A DNA stretch of 64,000 nucleotides from an uncultured Alphaproteobacteria bacterium (GTDB lineage Bacteria > Pseudomonadota > Alphaproteobacteria > MPNO01 > DASWLB01): positions 101,268-165,267 of the forward strand of contig CAVZIN010000010.1 in the NCBI GenBank assembly GCA_963775315.1, read 5' to 3'. A program made the position numbers and the translations under genes. Positions 59,465 to 63,576 of this stretch are shown here, piece after piece. The number at the start of each line of letters is the position of its first letter. The stretch's first letter is position 1. The notes below the pieces were generated by a model. That model did not search any database. It saw only the letters and a list, made by a program, of their open reading frames with translations, and was not told the DNA's origin.

Positions 59465-59767
59465 TTAACGGCCGGTAAGCGTCGACACGCCGCGGTCGAG
59501 CGCAGCCAGCACCGCGCGATGACGCGCGAGCGCCCGAAGAAAGGCCGATTTGTTGCGCCGGTGGCGGTCGTTCAGCCGCTCGATACGCGCCAGGTTCTCG
59601 GCAACCGCCCGGTCGCTTTCGCGAATCAGCCGCTCGATCGCGCCGACCGTCGCCTCGAGCCGTTCGGCCGCCAGGGCCGACCGGCGCCAGGCCCAGGGCG
59701 GCAACACATCATAGCGGCGCTCGAGCGCGTCCATCCGCGCGAGCCGCGCAATTGGTTCGGGACGCAT
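59465..59767 (-). CDS. Small Arg-rich helical hypothetical protein under the PL-like promoter
   Basis: GGAGG RBS; strong promoter with operators directly upstream. Confidence 0.6.
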   Translation of the reverse strand: MRPEPIARLARMDALERRYDVLPPWAWRRSALAAERLEATVGAIERLIRESDRAVAENLARIERLNDRHRRNKSAFLRALARHRAVLAALDRGVSTLTGR

Positions 59768-59796: not shown

Positions 59797-59847
59797 ATTA
59801 TTACGCTTTTCGCAATCTTTGTCAAGGAAAATTGCGAATGACGTAAC
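59797..59847 (-). promoter_or_regulatory. PL-like promoter with two repressor operators
   Basis: Minus-strand TTGACA(59825-20)-N17-AATAAT; operators ATTACG-N5-CGCAAT (59800-16) and ATTGCG-N5-CGTAAC (59831-47). Confidence 0.75.
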
Positions 59848-59867: not shown

Positions 59868-60491
59868 CTAGCCGCGGAGCCGATGCCACATCACCGGGGC
59901 GATCCACTCCAGCTCGACGTCGTGCTCGATCGGCACCGCCGCATTGATCGAGACGAGGGTGAAGACGCCGGGCCGCGAGCCGCGCTCGAGCAGCTTCACC
60001 AGCTTGCGCCCGTCGACGGTCTGGACCACGCATTCCGTCCCGTAGCAGCGCTCGGGGTTCAACCCGCGCTCGCGCGAATAGCCGATCAGCTCGCCGTCCT
60101 TGAAGCGCGGCGCCATCGAGTTGCCCCGCACCTTGACGGCGAACCCGCCGTCGCCTTCGTCCGGTGGCGGCTCGATCTCGTCCATTCCCGCGCCTTGCGA
60201 ATGGTCGTCCAGAGCGAAGATCGTTTCGCCCGCGCCGACATAGCCGACGACCGGAATCCGCCGGCGGACCTGGACGGCCGCCTTGCCGAGCCGGGCCACC
60301 ACCTCGTCGAGCCCCGTCTCCAGGAACTCGGCGATGTCGACCGCCTCATCGTAGGACACGCGCCGGCGCTTGTTGAGAATCTCGGTGACGCGCGCGGCAT
60401 CGAGCCCGAGATGGGCGGCAAGTCCGCGCTGGGACTTGCCGAGCGTTCTCAGCCGATCCTGGAACCACTGCTTGTCGGGCGCGCCGGTCAT
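59868..60491 (-). CDS. CI/LexA-like repressor (HTH plus S24 peptidase)
   Basis: HTH SQRGLAAHLGLDAARVTEIL; VGAG cleavage site; GNSM serine and VK lysine. Confidence 0.9.
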   Translation of the reverse strand: MTGAPDKQWFQDRLRTLGKSQRGLAAHLGLDAARVTEILNKRRRVSYDEAVDIAEFLETGLDEVVARLGKAAVQVRRRIPVVGYVGAGETIFALDDHSQGAGMDEIEPPPDEGDGGFAVKVRGNSMAPRFKDGELIGYSRERGLNPERCYGTECVVQTVDGRKLVKLLERGSRPGVFTLVSINAAVPIEHDVELEWIAPVMWHRLRG

Positions 60492-60497
60492 GAAACC

Positions 60498-60585
60498 AGT
60501 ATGCCGGCGCAATGTGACCTGCGCAACGAAAAATTGCGTATAGCGCAATATTGGCTTGACATGAAATTGCGAATACCGTAATGAT
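60498..60585. promoter_or_regulatory. Divergent PRM/PR-like promoters with three operators
   Basis: Minus: TTGCGC-N17-CATACT, 6 nt before the cI ATG. Plus: TTGACA(60556)-N18-AATGAT. Operators at 60511-27 (degenerate), 60533-49 (perfect ATTGCG-N5-CGCAAT) and 60566-82. Confidence 0.78.
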
Positions 60586-60591
60586 GTCACC

Positions 60592-60891
60592 ATGACGAGC
60601 ATGGTCCCCGGCCGCATCGCGGCCCATGCGGAGAAGGTCCCGACGGACCTTCCCCGCCTCGCCCCATCCTCCGGTCCCGACCAGGCGCCCGACGAGGGCG
60701 GGTGCCGCTTCATTGCTGCCGATGTCGACTGGCGCCGGTGGTCCTATTGCGGGCGGCCCGTGGCGCGCGGCGCCTGGTGTCCCGCGCACGACGCGGCGGT
60801 CCACCGCTGGCGCGGCCTGATGGAACGCCAGCGGCTGGGCGAAGAGATCATCCGCCGCATGGCCGAGGGAGAGACCGATGAGCAGCCCTGA
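60592..60891 (+). CDS. GcrA C-terminal-domain-like small protein
   Basis: CRF...YCG...WCPAH pattern resembling GcrA CRWP...FCG...YC..H; no N-terminal HTH. Confidence 0.6.
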   Translation: MTSMVPGRIAAHAEKVPTDLPRLAPSSGPDQAPDEGGCRFIAADVDWRRWSYCGRPVARGAWCPAHDAAVHRWRGLMERQRLGEEIIRRMAEGETDEQP

Positions 60892-61414
60892 CGCAGCCGG
60901 CCGCACGCCTGCCAAGGACCGGCCCTGGGCCATCGAGAACCTGCCGATCCCGGGCGGGCGCATCGCCGACCTGGTCAGCGAGGGGGACCCGGATTGCCGG
61001 CCGGTCGCCCATCACCGCGTGGTCGACACGATCGGCCTTCTGGAGCGCAACGGCACCATTACGCCGGACATGGCGATGGCCGCCGAGGCGTTCGCCCGCG
61101 ACTTCCGCACCGCCCACCTCGCCGGGATCCGAACCGCCTCGCTGATCCGCGTCGATTCCTCGCGACGTCCCGAGCGTCCGCACGGCAACGAGGGCGCGCG
61201 GCGGCGCGTGCTGCGCGACATGGAAGCGCTCGGCGGCCTCGGCGCACCGGGGGCCCAGGCGGTGTGGCACGTGGTGGGGCTCGAAGAGTCGCTGCGTGAG
61301 TGGTCCCACAGCGACGCGTGGCAGGGAAAGCCGATCCGGTACTATGCGGCGCAAGGCGTTTTGGTCGCCGCGCTGGGGGTCTTGGCTCGGGTACGCAGCG
61401 CCGCGAAGTTCTAG
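60878..61414 (+). CDS. DUF6456 family protein (GafZ/GafA-C-like putative antiterminator)
   Basis: IT..M..A...F..DF, ARRRV...ALGG, VWHVVG...SLREW, QGVLVAALGVLA. Confidence 0.7.
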   Translation: MSSPDAAGRTPAKDRPWAIENLPIPGGRIADLVSEGDPDCRPVAHHRVVDTIGLLERNGTITPDMAMAAEAFARDFRTAHLAGIRTASLIRVDSSRRPERPHGNEGARRRVLRDMEALGGLGAPGAQAVWHVVGLEESLREWSHSDAWQGKPIRYYAAQGVLVAALGVLARVRSAAKF

Positions 61415-61425
61415 GAATAAACAGC

Positions 61426-61454
61426 TTGACAAGTGCTGCGCCATAGTCTAAAAG
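61426..61454 (+). promoter_or_regulatory. Late-type sigma70 promoter P1
   Basis: TTGACA-AGTGCTGCGCCATAGTC-TAAAAG. Confidence 0.6.
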
Positions 61455-61471
61455 GGGCCCTACACTGTGAC

Positions 61472-61511
61472 AAAGGGCCCGCTGAAACTCAGGCTGAGCG
61501 GGCCTTTTTTT
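61472..61511 (+). terminator. Intrinsic terminator T1 directly after P1
   Basis: GGCCCGCT...AGCGGGCC stem followed by T7. Confidence 0.8.
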
Positions 61512-61551
61512 GTTTCCCCACAGGAGCGTGGCGTCGTTAGGATTTTTATCC

Positions 61552-61580
61552 TTGACAAGCGCTGCACCATAGTGTATAAC
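61552..61580 (+). promoter_or_regulatory. Late-type sigma70 promoter P2 (duplicate of P1)
   Basis: TTGACA-AGCGCTGCACCATAGTG-TATAAC. Confidence 0.72.
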
Positions 61581-61654
61581 CCGCGTCACGGTCGAGACGA
61601 GGGCCCCGCGGCGAAACTCTTGCCGGAGCAGCCACCGGGTCCCCTATCCGCCGC

Positions 61655-61703
61655 GGGAGAGATCCCCTAGCCTGGGTAGGCGCGGGTCTCTCCCTTTTCT
61701 TTT
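61655..61703 (+). terminator. Intrinsic terminator T2 in the terminase leader
   Basis: GGGAGAGATCC...GGGTCTCTCCC followed by TTTTCTTTT. Confidence 0.7.
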
Positions 61704-61712
61704 CGGCCATTT

Positions 61713-61744
61713 ACGGCGCCCCTTGCGGGCGCCGTTTTCTTTTT
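61713..61744 (+). terminator. Intrinsic terminator T3 in the terminase leader
   Basis: ACGGCGCCC-CTTGC-GGGCGCCGT followed by TTTCTTTTT. Confidence 0.8.
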
Positions 61745-61765
61745 CCAGCCACAGGACCGGAGCCA

Positions 61766-62029
61766 ATGTCGGACAGGACCGCCCGAGCCGGAGAGACTCG
61801 CGCCGCGCCGCCAAGCCCGCTCGACGTGCAGCTCGCGACCATGCGGGCGCTCTTCGCCGCCGCGAAGAAGAGAGGGAAGATCGTCGACATCGAACTGGCG
61901 CGCCAGGCATGCGACATCGCCAAACTCGCCGCGCCCTACGTACACGCCCGCCTCGGCACCACGGAGCCGGCGCCCGAAGCGCGGGTGCGTCACGAGGACG
62001 TGCTCGACCAGCTCGATGGCCCGTCGTGA
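61766..62029 (+). CDS. Putative terminase small subunit
   Basis: 87 aa with SPLD..L..MR and AAPYVH.RL; GTGA-coupled to the large subunit; GGAG RBS. Confidence 0.6.
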   Translation: MSDRTARAGETRAAPPSPLDVQLATMRALFAAAKKRGKIVDIELARQACDIAKLAAPYVHARLGTTEPAPEARVRHEDVLDQLDGPS

Positions 62030-63576
62030 ACGAGCTGAAAATCCCGCAGCGCCGCCGGCTGAAGGGGGACTTCCCGCTCTACGCGGAGAAGTGCCTGCGC
62101 ATTCGGCCGAAATCGGGCGGGCTGGTGACGTTCGCGCTCAACCCGGTCCAGCGACGCTTGCACCAAGCCGCCGAGGCGCAGCGCGCGCAGACCGGGCGCG
62201 TGCGGGCGATCGTGCTGAAGGCGCGCCAGCCGGGCGTTTCAACCTATGTCGAGGGACGGTTCTACTGGAAGGTGACCCACCTGAAGGGCGTGCGCGCCTA
62301 TATCCTCACCCATCGCGACCAGGCGACCAACAACCTGTTTGCCATCGCCAAGCGGTTCCATGACAACTGCCCCGTCTCGGTGCGGCCGGAGTTGCGCGCG
62401 TCGAACGCCGAGGAGCTGGAGTTCGGCGCGCTCGATTCCGGCTATCGGGTCGGCACGGCCAAGGCAGCGGGTGTCGGCCGGTCGGACACGATCCAGTTCT
62501 TCCACGGGTCGGAGGTGGCGCAATGGCCGCGCGCCGACGAACACGCCGCGGGCGTGCTGCAGGCCGTCGCTGAGGCGCCGGACACGGAGGTCTGGCTGGA
62601 ATCGACGGCGCGCGGCGCGGGCGGGCTGTTCCACAACCTGTGGCGCGCGGCCGAGGCGGGCGAGAGCGGCTATCTCGCCCTGTTCGTGCCGTGGTTCGAG
62701 CACGCCGACTACCGCGTTACGCCGCCGCCCGGCTGGGCCGCGCCGCCGTCTTTCGCCGAGTACGGCGCGCTGCACCGGCTTGCGCCCGACCAGCTTCACT
62801 GGGCATGGGCGAAGAACGCGGAGATCGCGGGCGCGGCCGGGCTCGGCACCGACGAGCCGTGCTGGCGCTTCCGCCAGGAATACCCCGCCGACGCGGGCGA
62901 GGCCTTCCGCGCGAGCCGCACCGACGGGTTCATCGCCCCGCATCTGGTGCTCCGCGCGCGTGACTTCGTGCCGCCACCGCAGGACCACGCGGCGCTGGTG
63001 ATCGGTTGCGACTTCGCCCGCGGCGTACGCGACTGGAACTGGTTCGTCGACCGCCAGGGTCGCACGGCCGGCACCAAGGTGAACGAGCGGTTCCATTCGG
63101 ACGATATCGAGGACATCGCGGGCCGGCTCGCCCGCATCGTCGACCGCACAGGCCCCGCCATGTGCTTTCTGGACTCGGGCGGCGGCGGCGCGGCGGTGCA
63201 CGACATATTGCGCGCACGCGGCTACGGCCGCCGGCTCGCCCTGGTCAATTTCGGCGGCGCGCCGCGCGACGTGCGCCGCTGGGCGAACAAGCGGGCCGAA
63301 ATGTGGGGCGAGCTGCGCGACTGGCTGGCCGATCCCGGCGGCGCGTCGTTGCCGGACGACGACGTGCTGGACGCCGAGCTGACCGCGCCCGGCTTCCGCT
63401 ACAACGCGAACCAGCAGGTCGTGCTGGAGGACAAGGAATCGATCCGGGCCCGGCTGGGCAGCTCGACGGATGGCGGCGACGCCCTCGCTCTGACCTTCGC
63501 CGCCCCGCTCGGTCCGCCAACCTTGCGTCGCACCGCGCCGCGGAGTGAGGGCGGCTACGCCGTCCACGGCTGGTAG
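62026..63576 (+). CDS. Terminase large subunit
   Basis: Q motif LNPVQ, Walker A LKARQPGVST, Walker B FHGSEVA, ESTA coupling motif, nuclease IGCD / LDSGG / STDGGDALALTFA. Confidence 0.9.
   Translation: MNELKIPQRRRLKGDFPLYAEKCLRIRPKSGGLVTFALNPVQRRLHQAAEAQRAQTGRVRAIVLKARQPGVSTYVEGRFYWKVTHLKGVRAYILTHRDQATNNLFAIAKRFHDNCPVSVRPELRASNAEELEFGALDSGYRVGTAKAAGVGRSDTIQFFHGSEVAQWPRADEHAAGVLQAVAEAPDTEVWLESTARGAGGLFHNLWRAAEAGESGYLALFVPWFEHADYRVTPPPGWAAPPSFAEYGALHRLAPDQLHWAWAKNAEIAGAAGLGTDEPCWRFRQEYPADAGEAFRASRTDGFIAPHLVLRARDFVPPPQDHAALVIGCDFARGVRDWNWFVDRQGRTAGTKVNERFHSDDIEDIAGRLARIVDRTGPAMCFLDSGGGGAAVHDILRARGYGRRLALVNFGGAPRDVRRWANKRAEMWGELRDWLADPGGASLPDDDVLDAELTAPGFRYNANQQVVLEDKESIRARLGSSTDGGDALALTFAAPLGPPTLRRTAPRSEGGYAVHGW

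Follow-up and report, generated by a model that had tools for sequence, protein, structure and literature searches.

The DNA between the gene for a DUF6456 protein and the large terminase gene, within a 64-kb window (the whole stretch of DNA analysed), is probably the late-gene switch of a lambda-like circuit built around an antiterminator of the GafZ family. Two near-identical promoters, P1 and P2, lie 126 bp apart downstream of the DUF6456 gene, with predicted starts at about 61461 and 61587, and three intrinsic terminators (T1 to T3) are found downstream of the promoters, 5' of orf87 and the large terminase (Table 1). At the level of sequence elements, the locus thus has the architecture of a Q-type switch: a regulator gene, a promoter, a -10-like element at +1 to +6, a terminator and the late genes. 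A preliminary description of this DNA had offered a lambda-Q-like reading, which homology and comparison largely support.

Table 1. Features of the proposed late-gene switch and its surroundings (positions in the window).
Feature	Position	Strand	Details
CI/LexA-like repressor (HTH + S24 peptidase)	59868..60713	-	Pfam Peptidase_S24 E 4e-11, HTH_3 E 2.5e-6
Two 19-nt operator-like repeats AAATTGCGNATANCGNAAT	60531..60582	.	overlap rightward early promoter-like site
Rightward early promoter-like site TTGACA-18-AATGAT	60556-60585	+	overlapped by operator-like repeats
orf99, stand-alone GcrA sigma-interacting-domain-like protein	60592..60891	+	motif C-x14-C-x9-C-x2-H
DUF6456 (GafZ / GafA-C family) protein, 178 aa, predicted antiterminator	60878..61414	+	PF20057
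P1 upstream TAGGA element	61415..61424	+	motif 61412-61424, takes in DUF6456 stop codon
P1	61426..61454	+	-35 TTGACA 61426-61431, 17-nt spacer AGTGCTGCGCCATAGTC, -10 TAAAAG 61449-61454
-10-like element TACACT (NANNNT) of P1	61461..61466	+	predicted +1..+6
Terminator T1	61475..61511	+	-18.8 kcal/mol, then 7 U
TAGGA counterpart of P2	61538-61550	+	matches P1 upstream element
P2	61552..61580	+	-35 TTGACA 61552-61557, 17-nt spacer AGCGCTGCACCATAGTG, -10 TATAAC 61575-61580
-10-like element CACGGT of P2	61587..61592	+	predicted +1..+6
Structured 5' leader of RNA2	61593..61654	+	two nested helices, one hairpin, invariant CCGGAGCAGC
Terminator T2	61655..61704	+	-26.9 kcal/mol, then UUUUCUUUU
Terminator T3	61713..61745	+	-19.1 kcal/mol, z -4.2, then UUUUCUUUUU
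orf87, first late-operon gene	61766..62029	+	in small-terminase position
Large terminase	62026..63576	+	tblastn against phage large terminases: 42% identity, 97% query coverage

P1 and P2 were confirmed as a 29-nt direct repeat (61425-61453 and 61551-61579; 86% identity, offset 126 nt), and the -10-like hexamers that had been reported after each -10 are present where they had been placed. The shared string GGGCCC..GC..GAAACTC, also pointed out before, occurs in both leaders, and the two units are colinear over ~100 nt. A simple sigma-70 scan did not list either promoter because it demanded T at the final -10 position, a base missing from both the P1 (TAAAAG) and the P2 (TATAAC) hexamer. A degenerate pattern made of the -35, the spacer and the start of the -10 matched twice in the 64-kb window and never in 100 shuffles, and a scan for the spacer motif at other loci throughout the 4.49-Mb genome found the pattern exact only at P1 and P2. 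A third genomic site (C11, 3 mismatches) was rejected as a chance match because it falls within a coding sequence and lacks a -10. On the minus strand, a promoter-like match (TTGTCA-17-TAGACT, 61473-61445) reaches into the P1 leader; outside the genus, its TGTGACA is not conserved.

The preliminary description had also assigned T1 to P1, and T2 and T3 to P2, and all three stems fold stably (Table 1). T1 is conserved between genomes with a U-A to C-G swap, T2 shows compensatory changes at five pairs among seven sequences, and the T3 fold was equalled by none of 200 shuffles. A simple scan listed T1 (inner stem) and T3 and missed T2. Within the cluster, no other strong coding-strand terminator was listed. 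The predicted RNAs measure ~50 nt from P1 to T1 (RNA1), and ~117 nt and ~159 nt from P2 to T2 and T3 (RNA2); the lengths proposed earlier were ~50 and 115-155 nt. DNA matches of 31-33 nt in G081, G093 and G100 (E ~1e-4) fell on terminator-like segments and were discarded as chance.

The order P1-T1-P2-leader-T2-T3 was found in all three other genomes of the genus, in one genome of another genus and in a metagenome locus (L198). Comparison of 13 promoter copies from 7 orthologous loci gave mean column identities of 0.99 for the -35, 0.87 for the spacer and 0.86 for the -10, versus 0.59 for the 6-nt gap and 0.58-0.59 for the flanks. The normally variable spacer, already called conserved in the preliminary description, is conserved to the same degree as the -10. 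The -35 was TTGACA in 12 of these copies and TTGACT in P1 of L198; in the hexamer, A at +2 and T at +6 were present in 13/13 copies and the remaining positions varied. Upstream, tAGGA.t was kept at -14 to -10 from the -35 across the 13 copies. The preliminary description had suggested that P1 may be a decoy or threshold device; one orthologous locus (L197) has P2 only and no P1, so the switch can do without P1.

The protein encoded directly upstream matched PF20057 with an E value of 2e-5 and 25.2 bits, slightly below the curated 26.3-bit cut-off; PF20057 is also the precomputed Pfam assignment of the window protein and of many among its 239 homologues, and the model also found a match in the Caulobacter control genome. 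Its C-terminal domain is a sigma-region-4-like HTH. Foldseek placed Q21 chains at ranks 3-6, not significantly; a Pfam scan with E up to 0.01 returned only DUF6456 and no lambdoid Q family, and a PDB sequence search with profile A2 returned no Q protein and nothing meaningful. There is no second DUF6456 or GafA-like gene in the genome. Among cultured phages, gp20 of AcaML1 is a DUF6456 homologue with 36% identity; no similar promoter cassette was seen in the one intergenic stretch of AcaML1 examined.

DUF6456 is the annotation given to homologues of GafA and GafZ in PMC9638019 and in Table 1 of PMC9765227. GafZ, from the gene transfer agent (GTA) of Caulobacter crescentus, is described as a processive antiterminator with a binding element between -35 and -10, a single genomic target, co-immunoprecipitation with RNAP and NusA, NusG and NusE, and read-through of terGTA and rrnB T1 (PMC11150451). 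By that account, the window protein resembles it in family annotation (DUF6456/GafA-C) and in its sigma-factor-like HTH, and the locus resembles its target in having a conserved -35/-10 element at one promoter heading a head-tail cluster, terminators to bypass, and a single target locus per genome, judged here from motif sites. The parallel is partial, because the -35 is consensus here and no GafY-like gene was found, whereas in Caulobacter GafZ has GafY and IHF as partners at a promoter with a weak -35 (PMC11150451). In addition, the terminators here precede the first gene and there follow it; the spacer is not an evident palindrome, unlike the Caulobacter ZBE; the gene for the regulator is immediately 5' in cis; promoter and terminator are duplicated as a tandem unit; and a GcrA-like partner gene and podovirus-like structural genes accompany it. 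GafA of the Rhodobacter capsulatus RcGTA, whose homologues are likewise annotated DUF6456 (PMC9638019), carries, in one fused protein, a DnaA-like domain at its N-terminus and a central region that binds omega, unlike the stand-alone C-terminal type found in the window. The C-terminal domain of GafA is reported to bind RcGTA promoter DNA that spans the -10, the -35 and the TSS (cited in PMC11150451).

The BrrG/PbgtA-K/TbgtA-K system of the Bartonella GTA (bioRxiv 10.1101/2024.11.20.624540) has a constitutive TTGACA-N17 promoter with a downstream terminator, similar to what is predicted here, and, a few bp 3' of the -10, a -10-like NANNNT element that BrrG needs; the preprint describes its antiterminator as having a sigma-R4/Q21-like fold. 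The Bartonella regulator differs in being encoded at another locus, its leader is ~860 bp long, and there is no tandem duplication. The lambdoid Q/PR'/tR' switches (Q-lambda, Q21 and Q82) share with the locus, as predicted from its sequence, the order of regulator, constitutive promoter, binding element in or near the spacer, sigma-dependent pause element at +1 to +6, terminator and late genes. A short constitutive RNA would also be made here, in the manner of the lambda 6S RNA.

How GafZ and GafA act is still debated, the choice being between a sigma-like activator and an antiterminator. P1 and P2 already carry a consensus -35, a 17-nt spacer and a near-consensus -10, and according to Tran and Le a consensus -35 makes PgtaT independent of its activator (PMC11150451). 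This makes it quite unlikely that the DUF6456 protein acts at P1 and P2 as a sigma-like factor or an activator of initiation, with terminators that only insulate or attenuate, even if its C-terminal domain is sigma-region-4-like, a site within the core promoter would suit initiation too, and GafA has been proposed as an alternative sigma or transcription factor (PMC9638019). Moreover, pure activation would leave the three conserved terminators, and the NANNNT conserved at +1 to +6, without a role.

The family-wide comparison was based on 116 non-redundant DUF6456 loci, derived from 149 usable loci among the 160 fetched. Coding-strand TTGAC occurred within 60 nt 3' of the stop codon in 24/116 loci, versus 0-12/116 in 19 other 60-nt bins. 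Terminator-like hairpins were present at 22-23/116 per 100-nt bin from 0 to +300 of the stop, compared with 0-4/116 from -600 to -100, 9/116 between -100 and the stop, and 9-12 at positions farther downstream. A terminator lay 60-260 nt 3' of TTGAC in 21 of 36 clusters, versus 21 of the 80 clusters without TTGAC. Among 31 promoters, NANNNT stood at gap 5 (14/31) or gap 6 (13/31) from the -10, together 26/31, or 18/23 with the close clade left out; at eight other gaps it was found in 0-2/31, the background rate being 3.9% per position. The spacers of these promoters gave the consensus CAWRRTG at -19 to -13 (C 24/31, A 23/31, A/T 30/31, R, R, T 23/31, G 26/31). CACGGT, the P2 hexamer, also occurs 3' of unrelated promoters in the L145, L148, L149 and L159 clusters. 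Downstream ORFs at other loci included ParB-methyltransferase fusions (12 of the 33 scanned), small terminase (2) and Neck1 (4), and we read the genes downstream of DUF6456 cassettes as late or packaging genes. On the same evidence the promoter cassette is far from universal behind DUF6456 genes: 80/116 clusters have no TTGAC within -12 to +120 of the stop, and under a strict promoter rule only 11/149 loci score, four of them from the close clade.

These data bear on the earlier proposal that the DUF6456 protein loads at the spacer sequence AGYGCTGCRCCATAG. Homology to GafZ and the conservation of spacer, NANNNT and terminators favour a loading site in the spacer, but the element is not simply the whole of AGYGCTGCRCCATAG, because the family-wide part is CAWRRTG and GCTGC is specific to the clade.

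The P2 transcript is also conserved as an RNA. In the RNA2 fold 92.6% of cells were paired, versus 47-55% with slid partners, and double changes occurred at eight pairs, five of them inside T2. In the predicted fold, the invariant helix 1 pairs ACGG from the pause-like hexamer with a CCG farther downstream, so that conservation of the P2 hexamer could be partly RNA-level. HK022 put is a cis-acting, protein-independent antitermination RNA, and this conserved, structured and covarying leader, right after a promoter and ahead of terminators, could be thought to act likewise. We give that reading an extremely slight chance: P2 has no repressor operator, and a self-sufficient antiterminator RNA would therefore make the late genes constitutive; P1 has no such leader, yet it has the same promoter, spacer and NANNNT; most of the covarying pairs (5/8) sit in T2 itself; and other DUF6456 cassettes have no such element, CCGGAGCAGC being located in a leader in the close clade only.

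Both units also look like typical sRNA genes, each with a strong promoter, a short transcript and an intrinsic terminator, and the conserved RNA2 fold with its invariant CCGGAGCAGC would suit a functional RNA. That P1 and P2 are genes of two small regulatory RNAs (~50 and ~117 nt) acting in trans or on immunity, with the late operon reached otherwise, is nevertheless very improbable. No other late-operon promoter was seen between T3 and orf87, and the promoter-terminator arrangement is seen again after other DUF6456 genes, where the leaders are unrelated in sequence. Neither RNA belongs to an Rfam family: an Rfam 15 scan of 60400-62200 with E up to 10 gave six weak, chance-level matches, all far below gathering scores, the best having E values of 0.085-7. 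The single-stranded 5' part of RNA1, moreover, is not conserved in more distant orthologues.

A second regulator candidate, orf99, was overlooked in the preliminary description. It is predicted to be the sole gene co-transcribed with the DUF6456 gene, whose start its end overlaps by 14 nt, and it resembles the GcrA sigma-interacting domain (SID). Pfam GcrA was found in 24 of the 29 distant matches scanned from its profile search, and in hhalign its motif lined up with host GcrA at E 0.011 and with a short GcrA-like ORF at E 8e-4. Its best Foldseek PDB match was the GcrA chain 7ye2_G (E 0.79, weak), with an Atlas lead at 0.89. The Pfam GcrA model itself gave no match to orf99, and a PDB sequence search with profile A4 gave weak HiPIP matches only (E 0.24-0.31) and no GcrA. 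[quoted passage not shown] It lacks a GcrA DNA-binding domain, the N-terminal portion of PF07750 gave no match, and its residues 1-35 are low-confidence and not conserved. Pfam detected no GcrA-like partner among 72 upstream ORFs of other DUF6456 loci. In the 1 kb upstream of 160 DUF6456 loci, the A5 HMM matched L037-L040 only, and a regular expression for the cysteine motif matched the same four loci plus two unrelated strings (L092, L187); the partner is specific to this clade, since it was found only in L037-L040.

It is possible, if doubtful, that the locus is a two-protein device in which orf99 clamps sigma region 2 on NANNNT to create or prolong a GafZ-type loading pause, the whole controlling a podovirus-type, integrase-less, vertically inherited head-tail cluster, which would be a new kind of GTA-like element under an SOS-type repressor, with tandem P1/P2 setting a threshold for an all-or-none lethal decision. 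The phage-like cluster has podovirus-like structural genes and no integrase or replication genes, and it looks vertically inherited and may be domesticated. Its large terminase matches phrog_2 (E 2.9e-23); no family match was found for orf87. The divergent repressor matches the phrog_4 transcriptional repressor (E 6.5e-21), and its true start is probably internal, near 60491, judging from the translation. Four operator-like sites were found in the window, against 0.08 expected, the other two at 59800-59818 and 59829-59847. The search of the window for such repeats found none at P1 or P2, and direct repressor control of the late promoters was rejected for this reason.

Under the GafZ-type antitermination that we prefer, what we infer from sequence about binding, pausing, read-through and timing would run as follows. 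A CI/LexA-type repressor on two operators would hold the early rightward promoter, and its loss would allow orf99 and the DUF6456 protein to be made from one transcript. P1 and P2, as strong housekeeping-sigma promoters free of repressor operators, would always be firing, and without the DUF6456 protein their transcripts would end at T1 or at T2/T3. When present, the protein would bind with its sigma-region-4-like HTH to the -10-proximal spacer CATAGTG/C (the family CAWRRTG), and the clade-specific GCTGC may add to the binding. Sigma region 2 on NANNNT would briefly hold RNA polymerase, and during this hold the DUF6456 protein would move to the polymerase and make it terminator-resistant. The modified enzyme would then pass T1, T2 and T3 into orf87, the terminase, portal, head and tail genes. 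With the unit present twice in tandem, there would be two loading sites and three terminators, making the switch tightly shut when off and strongly active when on.

To our knowledge, the regulation of gene transfer agents is the only role known for GafZ and GafA, and a full-text search of limited coverage found no paper describing DUF6456/GafZ homologues as phage late-gene antiterminators. The tandem duplication, the GcrA-SID-like orf99 and the vertically inherited-looking cluster are new. This locus and dozens of related phage loci show the GafZ/GafA family in what looks like its ancestral setting, where the DUF6456 gene is immediately followed by all four parts of a lambda-Q-type cassette: a presumably constitutive promoter, a conserved element in its spacer, a predicted pause element of the NANNNT type, and terminators. 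In less than 400 bp and one or two small genes, they offer a compact, testable model for the loading of GafZ-family proteins onto RNA polymerase, and the model predicts which DNA positions would count: -19 to -13, +2 and +6.

The region between the gene for the DUF6456 protein, a predicted antiterminator of the GafZ/GafA C-terminal family, and orf87 with the large terminase gene contains a direct repeat of 29 nt. Its copies, at 61425-61453 and 61551-61579, are 86% identical, lie 126 nt apart and each hold a promoter-like site (P1 and P2). Each site is followed by a -10-like hexamer, NANNNT, at the predicted positions +1 to +6, and three intrinsic terminators (T1-T3) lie behind them; the sequence here reads as the preliminary description stated. 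Neither site was called in a simple sigma-70 scan, because neither -10 has the final T. A degenerate pattern that runs from the -35 through the spacer into the first bases of the -10 had just two matches in the window and none in 100 shuffles, and the genome scan proposed earlier for the spacer motif returned P1 and P2 only in the whole 4.49-Mb genome. A further genomic site with three mismatches was rejected, being inside coding DNA and without a -10. Antisense to the P1 leader there is a promoter-like TTGTCA-17-TAGACT (61473-61445, minus strand), with a TGTGACA whose conservation is confined to the genus.

Features of the locus (window positions)
Feature	Position	Strand	Details
Head-tail cluster	59868 to ~76000, past window end		G000:C10:161.1-177.1 kb; L004
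CI/LexA-like repressor	59868-60713	minus	Peptidase_S24 + HTH (Pfam); phrog_4
Early rightward promoter-like site	60556-60585		overlapped by two 19-nt operator-like repeats
orf99	60592-60891		14-nt overlap with DUF6456 gene start
DUF6456 gene	60878-61414		directly after orf99
P1	first copy of 29-nt repeat		TTGACA, 17 nt, TAAAAG
NANNNT after P1	61461		TACACT, 6 nt past -10
T1	61475-61511		hairpin + U-tract, -18.8 kcal/mol
P2	second copy of 29-nt repeat		TTGACA, 17 nt, TATAAC
NANNNT after P2	61587		CACGGT, 6 nt past -10
T2	61655-61704		hairpin + U-tract, -26.9 kcal/mol
T3	61713-61745		hairpin + U-tract, -19.1 kcal/mol
orf87, then large terminase	downstream of P1-T3		terminase: 42% identity to phage terminases; phrog_2 E 2.9e-23
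Portal	beyond window		phrog_332 E 3e-119
Protease-like protein	beyond window		
Major head protein	beyond window		phrog_3437 E 2e-60
Tail protein	beyond window		phrog_376 E 2e-200

The P1 and P2 units are colinear over ~100 nt (upstream TAGGA, promoter, NANNNT, GGGCC..GC..GAAACTC), and a second repeat (D3) is shared by the tail of T1 and by that of T3 together with the ribosome-binding region; on this basis unit 1 appears to be an incomplete copy of unit 2. All three remaining genomes of the genus carry the intergenic region at 81-85% identity; it is also present in more diverged form in one genome of another genus, and in two metagenome contigs, L198 with both promoters and L197 with P2 alone, which indicates that P1 is not essential. 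Among 13 promoter copies from 7 orthologous loci, mean column identity was 0.99 for the -35, 0.87 for the spacer against 0.86 for the -10, 0.59 for the 6-nt gap, 0.74 for the hexamer and 0.58-0.59 for the flanks. A+2 and T+6 of the hexamer are found in 13/13 copies, its P1 variants being TACACT, TATACT, CAGCCT, TACGCT and CATGAT. Moreover, T1 pairing is retained despite a U-A to C-G swap between genomes.

RNAalifold predicted a structure of 27 pairs for RNA2, the short transcript expected from P2, with 92.6% of alignment cells paired versus 47-55% when the partners were slid. Eight pairs changed on both sides (five in T2, two in helix 2 and one in helix 3), a number reached by 1 of 500 shuffles. 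The leader (61593-61654) has a conserved fold with an invariant single-stranded CCGGAGCAGC, as a leader element confined to this clade, and matched no known RNA family. Two less likely readings concern such transcripts: the two units could be small-RNA genes, or the RNA2 leader could be a put-like RNA that acts on its own. In helix 1, ACGG of the P2 hexamer pairs with a downstream CCG; helix 1 is invariant in the sequences compared and so argues neither way, and the hexamer may be under constraint at the RNA level. A role at the DNA level is nevertheless favoured for CACGGT, because the same hexamer occurs in the clusters of L145, L148, L149 and L159, whose leaders are otherwise unrelated.

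For a family-wide comparison, 160 loci around DUF6456 homologues were used, namely the best 80 of 135 confirmed relatives from genomes and the best 80 of 111 from IMG/VR viral contigs; the 149 with 350 nt or more of downstream sequence were collapsed to 116 clusters. A strict promoter rule was satisfied by 11/149 loci, four of them from the close clade, and all 11 have a terminator behind the promoter. Coding-strand TTGAC occurs in 24/116 clusters within the first 60 nt past the stop codon and in 0-12/116 in each of 19 other bins. Terminator-like hairpins were found in 22-23/116 clusters in each 100-nt bin between 0 and +300, compared with 0-4/116 at -600 to -100, 9/116 in the 100 nt just upstream of the stop and 9-12 beyond +300. 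A terminator lies 60-260 nt past TTGAC in 21/36 clusters with TTGAC at -12 to +120, and 21/80 clusters without TTGAC have one. By these position profiles, the cassette is recurrent, yet only a minority of loci have a detected one.

In the 31 promoters for which a -10 could be assigned, NANNNT follows at a gap of 5 nt in 14 and of 6 nt in 13, one promoter having both (26/31 in total; 18/23 without the close clade), compared with 0-2/31 at gaps 2-4 and 7-11 and a background of 3.9% per position. The last seven spacer bases give the consensus CAWRRTG (C in 24, A in 23, A/T in 30, T in 23 and G in 26 of the 31), with which the window's CATAGTC and CATAGTG agree. One large group of loci has an inverted repeat, CATCTTGTG...CACAAGATG, straddling the -35. 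Many divergent loci (L084, L143, L146, L147, L177, L194) share a conserved stretch, GGTCCTTCCTGG...GTATGCGGGGGG, ~100-170 nt past the DUF6456 stop, and the k-mer TCCTTCC is found downstream in 17/116 clusters and in none in the control region. Scanning 33 downstream ORFs gave 12 ParB-methyltransferase fusions, two small terminases and four Neck1 proteins, the rest being unassigned or other. These loci are located where the early genes of phages meet the late ones.

The 178-aa product, encoded by the only DUF6456 gene of the genome, matches Pfam DUF6456 slightly below the cut-off (E 2e-5, 25.2 bits; cut-off 26.3); the protein collection contains 239 homologues of comparable length. Foldseek placed Q21 chains at ranks 3-6 with non-significant E values, and the likeness of the modelled protein to Q21 is taken as a lead only. 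GafA homologues carry the annotation DUF6456 (PMC9638019; PMC9765227, Table 1), and Tran and Le showed that Caulobacter GafZ, the homologue of the GafA C-terminal domain, has a sigma-like HTH, binds one promoter via an element between -35 and -10 and enables RNAP to pass terGTA and rrnB T1; these authors themselves likened it to lambda Q and AlpA (PMC11150451). A Q-like role had initially been proposed for the DUF6456 protein from lambda Q alone, and agrees with what is published for GafZ, of the same family (PMC11150451). We consider it probable that the locus is a GafZ-type, lambda-Q-style antitermination switch. The protein could instead, less probably, be a pure initiation activator; under this reading, as under the small-RNA and put-like ones, one or more of the conserved elements would have no role, or the late genes would be expressed constitutively. 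Under antitermination, the tandem promoter copy would most simply supply a second loading site and make the off state tighter; P1 may, as proposed initially, serve as a decoy.

A word-index search with orf99 returned close homologues only, and its profile gave 36 matches (E of at most 1e-3) among 1.84 billion representatives. Of 31 scanned, two were of low complexity and 24 of the other 29 carry Pfam GcrA, in the C-terminal part. The motif C-x14-C-x9-C-x2-H is invariant and was in register in hhalign comparisons with host GcrA (E 0.011) and a short GcrA-like ORF (E 8e-4). Among only five Foldseek PDB matches the best, a weak one, was the GcrA chain of 7ye2 (E 0.79), and an atlas search also points to GcrA (0.89, a lead only). 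The matching part is the sigma-interacting domain (SID), reviewed as binding sigma region 2 (PMC7403470); the GcrA DNA-binding domain is absent from orf99. The predicted product is a stand-alone GcrA-SID-like protein, translationally coupled to the DUF6456 gene. In the 160 loci its search profile (A5) matched L037-L040 alone, a cysteine-motif scan found these plus two unrelated strings, and tblastn added metagenome loci L197-L199; since it is found in the close clade alone, orf99 is not a general partner of the family. A second GcrA C-terminal-like ORF (86 aa) lies elsewhere in the genome (G000:C9:134316-134603; L217:1564-1824).

A search of the window for the operator motif found four occurrences, none of them at P1 or P2. 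A second operator-like pair (59800-59818 and 59829-59847, region 59797-59847) adjoins a strong leftward promoter-like site (TTGACA-17-AATAAT, 11/12), behind which lies an ORF of 100 aa (59465-59767, minus strand); pair and promoter would give the circuit a PL-like arm. No other strong coding-strand terminators are listed inside the head-tail cluster. All four genomes of the genus carry this ~16-kb cluster at an equivalent chromosomal position. It is 81-84% identical among them, a divergence similar to that of the host flanks, which are collinear at 70-90%, and neither an integrase nor a replication gene was observed in it; on these grounds it looks vertically inherited and is possibly domesticated. 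At G000:C10:174213-174822 the sequence is inverted relative to the relatives' matching stretch, and ~1.8 kb present in the other three genomes is missing there.

Switches of this kind are already known (GafZ, BrrG, Q), and a limited full-text literature search found no description of DUF6456/GafZ homologues as phage late-gene antiterminators. What is new is the duplication of the promoter unit in tandem, with three terminators, the statistics on NANNNT and CAWRRTG over the family, the putative GcrA-SID-like partner and the cluster that appears to be inherited, which may be a GTA-like element that has been domesticated and whose structural genes are of podovirus type.
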